Virus record (IMG/VR): IMGVR_UViG_2671180662_000011
Strand: one strand, 5' to 3'
DNA length: 9,804 bases
Source of the DNA: a virus
Lineage: Duplodnaviria; Heunggongvirae; Uroviricota; Caudoviricetes
Shown here: positions 1-6,000 of the stretch, piece by piece
Layout: the number at the start of each line of letters is the position of its first letter
Numbering within the stretch: position 1 is the first letter of the stretch
Program-made: the position numbers

Positions 1-3000
1 CGGCAGCGGGCTTGTAATGGGTTAAGTGATAACAGATGTCTGGAAATATAGGGGCAAATCCAGATAGTGAAATCGGTAGAGCGGGATATGAAGGTTGCCG
101 TGGATCGCTTTAACCGCGAGTACAACAAAAAAGTGGGAGTGGATTAACAGAAATGGCCCCGTACGGAAGTGCGGGGCTGATTAAGGAATAAACACACATT
201 AACCTGTAATAACCGGAGCTATTAACATATAGTCAGAAAGAGTATTTCATGTGAGACAGAGAGCCGATTTATGTTTAATGAAGAAAAAGTTGCGCAAATG
301 GCAGCGTATTTGCTGAAAAAGCATGGCGGATCTATGCGTTTCATTAAGCTGATGTATCTCTCTGACCGCAAAGCAATGGAGTCTTTAACCGGGAAGGGGA
401 GAGGTTTGAATGCTCCCCCACAATTCCCCGGCATCAAATCTCCATGCAGGTGAACTATTTTACCCCCAGCGGCAAATCGCAAAAACAATCAGTGCGATCG
501 AAATGGCAGCCACTACAATTGCAAATGCTTCAGGCTAGGTCATTGGCGTACCTCCTTCGGCGGTTCTGGTAGCGGCATCCAGTGGGTTACTTCTTTGAGA
601 TGCAGGTCTTCGCCATCACCGTCATCCCAAGTGGGATTGCCATCATTAAACCAGTCGCCATATACGCCGACCTGAGTGTTGGGGATGCTTGGTGGGTAGT
701 TGTTTTTAAAGTCAGCTGCTAACACATAGTATTGTCGCTCTCCCATTTCTGGCATTCGATCACTACAGCTTATCCAACCATCCGGAGTTACCGGAACTGG
801 CGGAACGGCTGTTTGCTCTCGAACGTCATTAGTCGCTATCGGTTCTGCTGCCAACTGACTGGCATATTTGTTAATGGTAACGATAAGCTCTTGCTCAGCC
901 TCATCCAGACAATCACCGATACCTCGCCTGTCACCGTCAAAATCATCGAAATCGGCACGAATCTTGGCAACCTTCTGGATTGCGGACAACACCTCACTAG
1001 GAATTACCGGATAGTTGGTTGACGTTTCCGCGATTTCCCGAAAATTATTGGTTGACGAATTCTTGTTTTCCCGAAAGTTTCCGGACTGAAGCATGGCGGC
1101 GCGGCAGGCATTCCAGCCTCTTACCTCTGCAATAGCGGCAACCGCATCAACCGCGTACATGCTAAGAGGATTAGGCATTGGTTTTTCTTCCGGTACTACT
1201 GGTGCTGGAGGGGCGGCGTAAATGCCCTCTATCACTAAATGTTTGCGCTCAAAATCATCTGGCTCTCGATGATATACGTAACTCCAATCACCAAGGTTAT
1301 CATTGCGCCTGCAACGGAAACCTATCGGCTCGGCTTCCAGCGCTGCCAGAGCAATTCGTGCCAGTTCTTCCGCTTCTTCTGCTGGCAGTACAACGTTGCT
1401 ACCAGGTCCGTATGTTTCGCGCCACTGCTTGATTGTCAGTAGTCGCTCTTTGGTAATAGTGATCATGCCGCGTTTCCTTCTTTCTTATTAACAATTACAC
1501 CGTCATATATTTCATTAAGGTGCCCTCTCAACTCCATGCGCCTTAATGCAGATAACATGTAATCGCATTCAACCTGCTTATTTATCTTCAGGGTTACCCC
1601 AACAGCAATTCCCCTTGGGCCATCCATGTACTTTCCGTACTCTTCCGTTAACAACGTGAAGTAATCCCCAGCCAGGTGGTAAATCCTCAATTGAAATAAT
1701 TCCCGGCGCACTAATAAAGAATCGCCAGTCGCCCATTCCAAGAGACGGATTTTTACGAAAACGCTTTTTTCTATCTGCCAACAAGTCAGCACGAGAACAT
1801 TTCGCCTCTATCAGGCATGATGCTGAATTTCTGAATCCCATAGCATCTGGCTGTTCTCCGGTACTGGTTACAGCTATAAAGCGGTCATGAAAACAAACCT
1901 TGAACCCGTTGCGCTTAAGGAACTTGTACGCAATCTGACAGAGTTCGCGGTGTGTTAACGCCATATCACTCTCCTTTGATGCGAATGCCAGCAAGCCAGT
2001 TTCTTATGCCGATATATTCAGCGTTCCGGAAACCGCTTTTTACATATATAAATGGCAAGCGAAGATTGTGACCATTGACTGCCAGGTAGTCTTTACAACC
2101 CTGTTCGGTGAAACAGCAGGTAACGAATTCATCAATATCTTTCACAGCAACGCGCCGCCATTTTTCTGGTGGCTCTCGAAAGTTTTCATGAAGTAGCTCG
2201 AGACGACGACTATGGCGTTTATTGGCTTCATTGCCATCTTCGTCAACCCAGACAATCCGGTCATGGTCATAATCAGCATCAACAACGATTTCGCGCTTTT
2301 GATACACACAAAACATGGGATCTGACGTTATTCGATTGTCCTGTGTTCGAATATTTTCACCGATGATGCCAAACGAATCTGGTGCAGATTTTGTCTGCAT
2401 CTCTTCGATACGTTCAGCCATCGCAGCACACTCTTCAAAGTTGCTTAATGCTTTTCGCTCCCATTCGGCGCATTGTTTTTCCAGTTCTGCTATGCGCTTA
2501 CTTCCATCCGCGATTACTCCCTCGTAATATTCACGCTGCTCGTTGAGTTTTGATTTTGCTGCTTCAAGCTCAACGCGCAGCTTCCCTACCGTAAGCGCAA
2601 TATCCTCGTTCTCCTGGTCGCGGCGTTTGATGTATTGCTGGTTTCTTTCCCGTTCATCCAGCAGTGCCAGCACGGTAGCCGGATTGGCTGCGGCGATGAA
2701 TTCAGCATTGGCCTGCTGTTCCATTTGGAAATCTTCATCGAAACCGCTTTCAGGATGTGCTCCTTCAATTCTGCAAATGGGAATATATCCAGCAGCCTCG
2801 CGATGAATTAGTGCATCATCACCATCAAATCGGTTCTCTCCATATTCGAGCGACCACTCACCACGCGTTGCTTTTTCTGCCTTTTCACGCAGTACCTGAT
2901 AGTTAATCTCGCTCATTTTTCTCTTCGCTCCGGTATACAAGAATTACAACGTCACCTCTGCTAATTACGCGAGCTGGATCTCCTGGCTCCATGCTGTCAA

Positions 3001-6000
3001 TCCCGAAGGCTTCGGAAAACGCATTCATTGCCTTCTGGCGTTGATCCTGCTTACGGCATTTATTCCATTTTTTCAGTAACAACAGCGATAGCCACCGCCC
3101 GGCGCAGAACATAATGTAAAAATAACCAAGAAGCGCCAGACCTGTGTTGAGGGCCGTATCGATCGTTATAGTGGTGTCTATGCTCACTTCACACCTCTCT
3201 GTTTGTTGATAAGTTCAATATCCTGCTGGCAACTGGCGCAAGTTCGGCATCCGCGAACAGCCTGGCGTCGCCGCTCATCTATCGGATCGCCACACTCGCA
3301 ACAATGAGTAGCAGATGGGGCATTACTTTCGGATTTGTATTTTTGCAGGGAGAGATTGCGCTGCAATTCTTCGATTTCAGCGGCATTGTCGATGATATCT
3401 GCCATTTTCCTTTCCTTCAGGCATGAAAAAAGGAGCCGAAGCTCCTTTGGTATCAGAATTCAAATTGTCTTGCTCTTAGTTGCGCTAGCATACTTCTGGC
3501 CCTATGCACCATATAGTTGGCGGGATCAAGTTTTGCTGCTTCGCGGAGCAATGTGTCGCGAGTCCGGTTGGTTATATGACGAGTCTCGTAGGCCAGATCA
3601 AACAGTTTCCCGTAGTAATCAGAATTCAGTTCTCTCATGACGGGGTATAGCTGCTTACTGAGTTGTTGTGCTTTTTCCATCCAGAGTTGAACGTAGCAGA
3701 GCAGGATGATGTCTTCTGCTGTGAATTGCTGCTCAGTTTGTACTGGCTGAATGTTGCGAAGTTTCTTTTCGCACTCGATGAAGTATCGGCGTATCTGGCG
3801 GCCTTTTTCGTTACGTTCAACCATCGCAAGCTCTTTGGCTGTGTCGAGGGTGAGGTGGTAATCCTTGCGGCGGCGGCCTGGAGTTTTCGCCAAATTTGGC
3901 GAAAATAGAATGTAGTCTAAATTTTCTACGAATCCATACTCGTTTAGCTTGGCCCGTATCCAGTTAGAAAAATCTTTACCTACCTCTAAAAATCCATGCA
4001 AATCACGCGCGTTCACCAGAAGCGTAGGTTCATTTGAGATTGTACCTTCAAACACAGGGATGAGTTGAGTGGTCATGATGACCTCCTTTGGCTTTTTTCG
4101 AGAAATGCCACCACAAAATGTGGTGCCGGGAGGCTCGAAACGGCCCAAAAGATACCGCGGACTTATTCCCCTTGCGGGTGTTGTATTCGTCGCCCTCCCG
4201 ACATTGATCGGGGATGTGACCGCACACTGTGCTATCACTGAATAACAGGCATAAAAAATCCAACACTGACGGGGTTGGTTTAATCCGCTTTTGGGAGGTT
4301 TTCGAGGCCTCGGCGCGGAGTATAGTCAGTATTGGACGCAGTCGTCAACCATCGCCGTTTCTTTGGCTGTGTCGAGGGTGAGGTGGTAATCCTTGCGGTT
4401 GTGACCGCCTCTACCAGATGTTTGCTTTCCCAAATTGGAAAGCAAAATATAGTCTTGATTTTCAATGAATTCGTATTCTGAAATGCGATTTGTAATCCAT
4501 GCCGCAAACACCTTTTTCACGCCTAAAAAAGCATGCAGATCGCGGGCATTGCAGAGTAGGGCTGTTTCGTTGTCGATAGTGCCGTTGAATACGGGGATGA
4601 GTTGATTAGCCATAATTATGACTCCTGACGTTTTAGTATTGACTGCCACCTTAGTGGGGTGGCGGGCTTCAACTACCGCGTCAGACGGCGGAGCGTATTT
4701 CCCGAAAGGGTATTGTATTAGGCTCTCTCGACCCGCCATTGATATGGCGATACCTGTAAACAGGCATAAAAAAGCCGCAAAGCTATCGGGTGCGGTTGAC
4801 CGCTGACGTTGTAGTGCGGTCAGTATGCGATAGCTCTGGCAGATTTGTCAAATCGTGCAGTAACATCCTTTTCTTCCTTGCCATTTCTCAATGATGACAA
4901 AGGGTGGATTCGGATTGGTATTGGGACAAAAGTGAGACACACAAAGCTTTGCATCGGCTTACAAAGCTTTGCATGTTTTTCAATGTTGGGACGTGTGAGC
5001 GCAGAAATGACGGGCTATCTAATTGATTTTAAACGATACGTAACCAACTTTAAAATCTTTGCACGCCAGTTCGCAGGTTTTACAGCCAGTACAGCGGCTG
5101 GAATCGATAAAAAATCCATATTGTGTGGTCATGGGCTACTCCTTAAACCTTTTCGATCTGGACAAGATTGCTGTGCGACGGGTTTCCCTTTGCCAGCGGT
5201 GAAGGGCGGTGAGAGGTCAGAATATTGATACTGCCGCCGTGATCGACCCGGTCACCAAACATATCCGCTTTAAGCCACGCACCTTGCCCGATGGCGGTAA
5301 CGCCAGGCAGAATACGCGGAGTCACTTTTGCGGCAATCAGCATTTCTCCATTATTGTTAAATACCCGCACGGTATCGCCATGACGGATACCGCGTGCCTG
5401 AGCATCAATGGGGTTGATCCACACCTCTTGTGGGCAGGCCTGCTGTAACACATCAATATTGCCGTAGCTGGAGTGGGTACGCGCTTTGGTTTGGCGACTT
5501 CACTCAGCATCCAGTAGATGGGTTTGCGTTCAAATTTTGCTGAGGTTGCGGGTTGGGCGAGGATCACATAGCCCATATTCCCTGCAGATTCATGAGAGAT
5601 AAGGTCTTCTTGCTCTGTTGGCATCAGGTCAGGCAACAGGATATCGCAATACTTAGCCGAGGCCGTCATGAAGTGGTCAATGCCAACAATCATCTCGCAC
5701 TTGCTGTCATCCTGAAGCACCTCATGGGTGTGATTGATGTCGCCATGTTGATTGATCAATGTGTTACTGGCGTAGCACCATAAAAACTTGATGGGGACAT
5801 CCAGTTTTTCTTTTCCACGAACACCATCACGGGTCGCGGTCATTTTCGTACCATGGTCGATGGCATCTGTCCATGTAAAAACGGAAATCTGCGTTTTAAC
5901 AGGATTCTCGAGCATCGGGAACCATTCTACCCCCAGATCCCAGCTACCTTCGCGTACACCTGAGTTGCCGCCGTTTATGCCGACGTTACCGGTAAGAACG

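Follow-up and report, generated by a model that had tools for sequence, protein, structure and literature searches.

A probable string of exchangeable early genes, with a truncated putative PD-(D/E)XK nuclease gene, beyond attP of a decaying POC-J13-type prophage in Shigella flexneri

Introduction

Phage lambda and the Shiga toxin (Stx) phages carry an exo-xis region (orf60a-orf63-orf61-orf73-ea22), whose "orf73-ea22-variable genes" part would be the counterpart of the gene block analyzed here. The block occupies positions 540-3405, minus strand, of a 9,804-nucleotide window (the whole stretch of DNA that was analyzed, from the IMG/VR virus record IMGVR_UViG_2671180662_000011). Since orf73/TraR and ea22 have already been studied experimentally in lambda and Stx phages, the significance of the locus lies mainly in its annotation. 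Lambda Orf73 binds RNA polymerase (RNAP), inhibits rRNA and ribosomal protein promoters, retards growth of the host and increases the yield of phage three- to four-fold (PMC9239242). RNAP binding and inhibition of rrnB P1 have been demonstrated for lambda Orf73 and other homologues (PMC9239242), and an N-terminal acidic DxxDxA motif reaching the RNAP active site is the hallmark of the TraR type (PMC8614690). Ea22 favours lysogeny in lambda and Stx phages (PMC7093339, PMC10834534). It is a mosaic protein with swappable C-terminal domains, and DUF551 is a portable domain (PMC10834534), to which the literature assigns no function (PMC4776307, PMC10834534).

The match to Shigella phage POCJ13, the ynfG site, a resident integrase gene and a prophage gene cut by an insertion sequence (IS) show that the setting of the block is a decaying POC-J13-type prophage in Shigella flexneri. 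In the alignment, window positions 63-5047 are the right end of POCJ13 (records KJ603229 / NC_025434), an Stx1a-converting phage (Sepvirinae, Diegovirus), save for one single-nucleotide polymorphism (4469) and one 14-bp indel. The two share gene order and sequence over 63-5047 as well as the ynfG/S1742 integration site, S1742/ynfG being the published site of phiPOC-J13 (PMC4193171). The window copy differs by a 14-bp deletion that truncates gp75 (the nuclease) and by an IS end that cuts the LPD gene at 62/63. The counterpart genes in POCJ13 are gp74-gp77 plus an unannotated traR open reading frame (ORF), and the block is thus already known as a published phage segment of mosaic early genes.

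With the exo-xis region found in lambda and in Stx phages, the block has in common an orf73 gene (71% identity), the N-terminus and coiled coil of ea22, and overlap-coupled packing (PMC8614690), as well as the strand logic downstream of the recombination genes and the variable genes following ea22. Unlike that region, the window lacks orf60a, orf63 and orf61 and has ant genes upstream instead; a DUF4752 gene is intercalated, so that orf73 does not directly overlap ea22 as it does in lambda and phi24B; Ea22 has a different C-terminal domain; nuclease and DUF551 genes stand in place of lambda ea8.5; and the place of the block is beyond attP/int, not between exo and xis. We consider it probable that the block is a distal early-left (pL-direction) accessory string of a ynfG-integrated POC-J13-type Stx phage, consisting of independent and exchangeable genes and not of one co-evolved machine. 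The genes would be individually exchangeable, non-essential early genes, with compact translational coupling keeping neighbours together.

Results and discussion

Gene content and junctions of the block

The first-pass annotation, made from the sequence alone, had counted five to six genes in the block. Five genes are indeed present on the minus strand; the sixth is one half of a split nuclease gene, the disruption of which had gone unnoticed. The family labels were right, as Pfam and PHROG scans agreed with PF01258 (zf-dskA_traR), PF15944 (DUF4752), PF13935 (Ead_Ea22) and PF04448 (DUF551), and assigned the nuclease to PHROGs 9263/631. Every one of the five genes is preceded by a Shine-Dalgarno-like purine run. 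The features of the block are as follows.

3184..3405, minus strand: orf73/TraR homologue, 73 aa, C4 zinc finger (PF01258, phrog_54, identity to lambda Orf73)
2903..3187, minus strand: DUF4752 protein, 94 aa, GTG start (PF15944, 135.5 bits)
1966..2916, minus strand: Ead/Ea22 protein, 316 aa, ATG at 2916 (PF13935, 128 bits, residues 2-146)
1578..1964, minus strand: truncated gene for a putative MmcB-like PD-(D/E)XK nuclease, 128 of 171 codons, pseudogene (alignment)
1463..1577, minus strand: orphaned, out-of-frame 3' end of the nuclease gene, its TGA (1463-1465) forming ATGA with the DUF551 start
540..1466, minus strand: DUF551 "EaA" protein, 308 aa (PF04448, 71.4 bits, residues 230-304)

Three of the junctions described earlier could be read in the sequence: the GTGA at 3184-3187, where the TraR stop overlaps the GTG start of DUF4752; the 14-nt overlap at 2903-2916 between the DUF4752 stop and the Ea22 ATG at 2916; and the TGA-t-ATG at 1962-1968, in which a 1-nt spacer separates the Ea22 stop from the nuclease ATG at 1964. 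The letters of the ATGA at 1463-1466, proposed to couple the nuclease and DUF551 genes, are there too, but its TGA is no longer the nuclease stop codon.

Packing this tight is nothing unusual. A Klebsiella locus (L091) has eight successive overlapping junctions among unrelated genes of a lambdoid accessory region, and the pL operon of POCJ13 itself has 4-nt overlaps at exo/bet and between gam and the next gene. The packing is thus generic in lambdoid accessory regions, whatever the gene content, and overlapping start and stop codons in these regions should not be taken as the sign of a functional unit.

Linkage of the five genes across loci

We followed the linkage of the genes in 80 IMG/VR viral loci anchored on the nuclease, which is 98-99% identical among them (denominators are the loci with enough flank), and in 80 loci anchored on DUF4752. 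Within 2.5 kb upstream of the nuclease, TraR was found in 3/65 loci and DUF4752 in 5/65, while the Ea22 C-terminal domain of the window was present in 2/65. All five families were present in one of 56 loci. Some Ea22 N-terminal module lay upstream in 51/65 loci (32-96% identity, at many offsets) and some DUF551-protein module downstream in 58/70; in 39 of the latter 70, the downstream gene carried the N-terminal module of the window's DUF551 protein and started exactly at the ATGA overlap.

Among the DUF4752 loci, TraR abutted DUF4752 in 25/79, every time with the GTGA overlap, and Ant was upstream in 23/79. The nuclease was downstream in 25/54, and the complete set of the window was found in 3/53 (7/53 when counted loosely). 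The Ea22 gene followed DUF4752 at +271, +471, +560/572 or ~+1255 nt, and these varying offsets indicate that other genes have been inserted at the DUF4752/Ea22 joint.

More distant nuclease homologues (59-76% identity) had neighbourhoods that fell into seven groups.

Morganella: nin region, between NinB and NinF/NinG
Lonsdalea: nin region, between NinB and NinG
Providencia: ahead of RusA
Serratia: after replication genes
Klebsiella: after replication genes, followed by DUF551 or dATP/dGTP pyrophosphohydrolase genes
Cronobacter: adjoining SSB/N, or in a P22-like ea region
Metagenomic phage: among small ORFs

TraR and DUF4752 were nearby in none of these seven groups. The idea of a single conserved five-gene cassette therefore did not hold, as the homologues occur independently and, in the co-occurrence counts, essentially without conserved linkage.

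The nuclease gene and its disruption

Alignment with phages POCJ13 and 75/02 Stx located a 14-bp deletion (AACCTTTTATTGGG) between window positions 1580 and 1581, flanked by short ATAA repeats. The intact gene has 171 codons and ends with a TGA that forms ATGA with the DUF551 start. In the window, the nuclease frame ends at a TAA at 1578-1580, 111 nt ahead of the DUF551 ATG, and its product lacks 43 conserved C-terminal residues; correspondingly, positions 62-187 of PHROG 9263 match in one frame and positions 192-230 in another. Because the deletion shifts the nuclease frame, translational coupling between the nuclease and DUF551 genes is broken in the window. A programmed frameshift was considered and rejected, as the gene is one uninterrupted ORF of 171 codons in relatives and the 14-bp deletion is what causes the shift.

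The exact truncated protein was found in two contigs only, the intact allele in at least 1000. Many database clusters of the nuclease are themselves truncated (110-149 aa), one cluster of 111 aa having 645 members, and in several Stx2 phage records the gene is split into N- and C-terminal halves or labelled a pseudogene. In prophages, decay of this gene seems to be frequent. The family of about 171 aa is widespread in prophages of Enterobacterales and is repeatedly truncated.

The PD-(D/E)XK assignment is supported at the level of the predicted fold and its conserved residues. In 26 homologues (58-98% identity to the intact allele), D27, E37, D40, E53-x-K55, R58, D60, D64 and K67 were invariant. 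A profile-to-PDB alignment paired the D...IE-x-K-x-SR-x-DF signature with SPO1766 (PDB 3dnx), placing the catalytic D40 and E53-x-K55 on the same motif of that structure. The AlphaFold2 (AF2) model of the intact allele (predicted local distance difference test, pLDDT, 83) contains the alpha-beta-beta-beta-alpha-beta core fold, and a Foldseek search against viral models returned several matches named MmcB-like DNA repair protein. No Pfam model matched the nuclease or the 26 homologues at E<=10, Hjc being a sub-threshold match in 11/26, and a literature search on MmcB/DUF1052/SPO1766 returned unrelated papers only. Judged from the models, the family is a structural neighbour of MmcB and not a member defined by hidden Markov models. 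It resembles MmcB-like SPO1766 in the D...(E)-x-K signature, a similarity that is structural only, and differs by a conserved C-terminal helix of its own (KPFxxNKQxECDYMxSALRR), which is lost in the window copy.

The MmcB-like protein would probably act as a stand-alone DNA-processing enzyme, found elsewhere among the recombination genes of nin regions and inactivated here. We regard it as quite unlikely that the ~171-aa family provides a distinct phage DNA-processing function working together with the DUF551- or DUF550-type gene coupled to its stop codon. On that reading, the step served could be one of recombination, repair or anti-restriction; if the family did have such a distinct function, its recurrent decay in lysogens would point to a cost to the host. 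For annotation, the gene that separates ea22 from the DUF551 gene, listed as "hypothetical", can be described as a putative PD-(D/E)XK, MmcB-like nuclease gene that has no Pfam model and is often pseudogenised. This fold assignment and the recurrent Ea22-nuclease-DUF551 neighbourhood are only mildly new.

The TraR, DUF4752, Ea22 and DUF551 proteins

The homology of the TraR-like protein to lambda Orf73 is unambiguous by sequence comparison. The two are 71% identical across the full 73 aa, including D3, D6 and all cysteines (HCCECG...GCRTCASC), and the N-terminus MADIIDNA supplies D3, D6 and A8 of the D-x-x-D-x-A motif. The protein scored 35.3 bits against PF01258 (cut-off 24.9), matched the DksA-like zinc finger phrog_54 with E 1e-24, and aligned over its full length with the F-plasmid TraR chains 5w1s/6n57. 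It thus shares with F-plasmid TraR and lambda Orf73 the length of 73 aa, the DxxDxA N-terminus, the C4 zinc finger and the full-length alignment to TraR chains, and departs from them in falling just under the TIGR02419 cut-off of NCBIfam (55.2 versus 59.7 bits), a narrow miss. By analogy with lambda, the homologue would insert into the secondary channel of RNAP and shut down rRNA and ribosomal protein promoters, diverting the host to phage production. Of the host takeover proposed in the first-pass annotation for the block, the part that stands is this protein, owing to its identity to lambda Orf73 (PMC9239242); for the other four genes the proposal is unsupported.

The DUF4752 protein has hydrophobic residues at 12-38 followed by a K/R cluster, both conserved in a family that is limited to Escherichia, Shigella and Salmonella (79 clusters). 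From its sequence, it is probably a small single-pass membrane protein. A PDB sequence search gave no significant match, and no paper on DUF4752 turned up in the literature search.

Residues 66-146 of the Ea22 protein are nearly identical to the coiled coil of lambda Ea22, and the N-terminal segment is also common to both. The C-terminal domain is unrelated to that of lambda Ea22, and the last eight residues, AGIRIKGE, are identical again, which marks a recombination joint. No significant match was obtained in a sequence search of the PDB. A regulatory role is plausible: by analogy with its studied homologues, Ea22 would be a coiled-coil oligomer with a swappable C-terminal domain that biases the lysis-lysogeny decision toward lysogeny.

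The DUF551 protein is composed of three mosaic modules (N-terminal, 1-95; middle, 97-230; DUF551, 230-304), each with a separate PHROG match, and these modules recombine independently across loci. The identical protein is present in >500 contigs, and the protein has >8000 matches overall. It shares the C-terminal DUF551 domain with YfdS (CPS-53) and P22 EaA-type proteins, and sources name the identical protein "EaA protein"; its N-terminal and middle modules are unrelated to YfdS. A sequence search of the PDB returned no significant match, and AF2 on an alignment of 18 sequences (83-98% identity) reached a pLDDT of 36.

Position of the block and its expression

In POCJ13, the left end carries int, exo, bet, gam, kil and N on the minus strand; the block shares this strand and occupies the extreme right end, past int/attP and after the ant genes. 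The circularised order is N ... exo ... int - attP - antA' - ant - traR - DUF4752 - ea22 - nuclease - DUF551. The lambdoid left-arm position assigned earlier to the block was hence mistaken, as in a POCJ13-type phage it sits beyond attP, at the right prophage end, and not at the exo-xis site. In many other Stx phages, the DUF551-nuclease-ea22 segment is found at 3-7 kb, adjoining int/xis. Three features upstream of the block bear on its expression.

3425..3450, minus strand: terminator-like hairpin AAAGGAGC-UUCG-GCUCCUUU followed by a U run (sequence, fold)
3453..4082, minus strand: Ant antirepressor gene, immediately upstream of the block (PF08346, PF10548; phrog_377, E 6e-89)
4326..4613, minus strand: AntA-domain fragment, a second, truncated ant copy (PF08346; POCJ13 gp79 annotation)

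The hairpin, which folds into an 8-bp stem, begins 3 nt past the ant stop and lies 20 nt ahead of the traR ATG. It is invariant in 23 loci, in which the ant alleles are 63-100% identical to that of the window, and a second traR type has an analogous hairpin (GGAGC...GCTCC-T6). Its folding energy alone is unexceptional (z -0.6), and a consensus terminator/promoter scan missed it; we read it as a terminator because of its canonical form and its conservation. Promoter-like sites in the region were at chance in the consensus scan (7 found versus 6.9 expected). As the sequence leaves no promoter room between the hairpin and traR, expression of the block would depend on antiterminated read-through of this predicted terminator. 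In lambda, antiterminated pL transcripts cross att (sib retroregulation). By analogy with the lambda b region, transcripts crossing attP could reach the block in the circular or infecting genome; in the prophage, the block is cut off from pL. In POC-J13-type phages, the orf73-ea22 block is located beyond attP, so that it loses its connection to pL upon integration.

Two matches to Rfam RF02221 (sRNA-Xcc1; gathering score 53) were observed on the minus strand near the ant genes. The match at 4117-4202 (74.5 bits) is ~35 nt upstream of the ant ATG at 4082, and that at 4653-4737 (53 bits) is upstream of the antA fragment (4326-4613), within a longer ORF at 4326-4739. The two matches resemble a structured 5' leader conserved in phage antirepressor genes.

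Alternative explanations

The proposal in the first-pass annotation was a single co-evolved module, serving anti-defence or host takeover through the joint action of the five gene products. The tight start/stop overlaps at three junctions could be cited for it, yet such junctions are generic; and the same order does recur, in a minority of prophages (3/53 complete, 7/53 loosely), yet each gene occurs without the others, distant nuclease homologues are mostly in nin regions without TraR or DUF4752, and lambda and phi24B orf73 abuts ea22 without DUF4752. Here the nuclease gene carries a frameshift, and its truncated alleles are frequent. In favour of a module, TraR/Orf73 is a proven reprogrammer of host transcription in lambda (PMC9239242). 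None of the six proteins matched a PADLOC model, and no PHROG match had a functional annotation, which leaves the suggested anti-defence or exclusion role unsupported. NCBIfam gave no matches for four of the five. On balance, one co-evolved module is very unlikely. We find very unlikely a cassette for exclusion or defence expressed in the lysogen, in which membrane protein and nuclease would guard their host against other phages. Exclusion systems typically include small membrane proteins and nucleases, and the block, cut off from pL, is located at the end of the prophage with the host ynfEFG operon pointing into it. However, ynfE is truncated by the integrase/IS insertion, hence host read-through is unlikely; the terminator-like hairpin directly upstream leaves no promoter room, the nuclease is inactivated, PADLOC matches are absent, and in other Stx phages the same genes are inside the pL operon beside int/xis.

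A smaller unit, made of the nuclease and the ATGA-coupled gene with the DUF551-protein N-terminal module, possibly with an Ea22-type gene, would pair the nuclease with a regulator or targeting partner. The N-terminal module gene is at the nuclease stop in 39/70 loci, a DUF551 module is downstream in 58/70 and an Ea22 N-terminal module upstream in 51/65, but the 80 loci with 98-99% identical nuclease DNA indicate recent common ancestry, and Ea22 and DUF551 genes are so abundant (>8000 DUF551-protein matches) that chance adjacency is high. In the nin regions of Klebsiella, DUF551 or DUF550 (dATP/dGTP pyrophosphohydrolase) proteins come after the nuclease in 4/4 places, and in one Klebsiella locus (L092) an Ea22-like protein (weak Pfam match) precedes the nuclease; in Morganella, Serratia, Providencia, Lonsdalea, Cronobacter and a metagenomic phage, by contrast, the downstream gene is NinF/NinG, RusA or an unrelated small ORF. 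The DUF551 gene is also intact here despite the broken nuclease. We thus judge such a unit unlikely, and shared ancestry together with the abundance of the families most likely accounts for the recurrent Ea22-nuclease-DUF551 neighbourhood. Several points weigh against our preferred reading of a string of independent genes. The very recurrence of Ea22-type genes upstream (51/65) and DUF551 modules downstream (58/70, 39 at the ATGA) makes some functional pairing within the trio conceivable, and the nuclease loci carry near-identical alleles and hence are not independent samples. Read-through from pL across attP, termination at the hairpin and the activities of the proteins are what we infer. Some expression in the lysogen could come from a promoter-like site at 4348-4319, upstream of ant. 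DUF4752 is assigned to the membrane on the strength of a borderline hydropathy value, its highest Kyte-Doolittle mean over 19 residues being 1.55 with an Arg within the segment.

Prophage ends, host flank and minor features

The following features delimit the prophage and its surroundings.

1-62: end of a multicopy IS, interrupting the prophage's giant LPD38/LPD5 polyvalent-protein gene at 62/63
5047, no strand: right prophage end (attR side), where the match to the POCJ13 record stops
5130-5047: ynfG 5' remnant, first 84 nt only, adjoining the prophage end
5337-7184 and 5143-5451: ORFs of ynfF, split by a frameshift
~8272: cut in ynfE, adjoining the integrase fragment at 8334-9371
9405-9743: IS3-family orfA, cutting the integrase fragment

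Homology to POCJ13 and E. coli relatives begins at window position 63, and the preceding 62 nt are presumably the terminus of IS2. Beyond the ynfG remnant come the frameshifted ynfF and the truncated ynfE; a partial 4Fe-4S protein is annotated at the corresponding place in E. coli relatives. The integrase fragment is identical to the S. flexneri "integrase" AAN43192.1. That it might be the prophage's own Int was considered and rejected, because it belongs to the resident S. flexneri genes and shows no similarity to POCJ13 Int. The prophage itself is probably defective.

Public annotation of the 540-3405 block is inconsistent. Two E. coli loci (L001/L002; 2012C-4502, JNE120442) are 99.3-99.5% identical to window 540-3450, and in RefSeq their DUF551 gene is given as three fragments and their nuclease as "frameshifted". 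The RefSeq record of POCJ13 has the DUF551 and nuclease genes as intact ORFs and omits the traR ORF.

A short plus-strand ORF (271-453 and 410-538) converges on the DUF551 gene and matches phrog_3658. It encodes 60 aa only and has no Pfam match; its N-terminus resembles, as we presume, Panacea/SocA-type (DUF4065) antitoxin-like proteins. At 4937-4976 on the minus strand, ~70-110 nt inside the prophage end, there are two adjacent copies of the palindrome-containing ATGCAAAGCTTTGT. The scan scored them as a 17-bp "terminator-like" stem, and they could be protein-binding sites near att.

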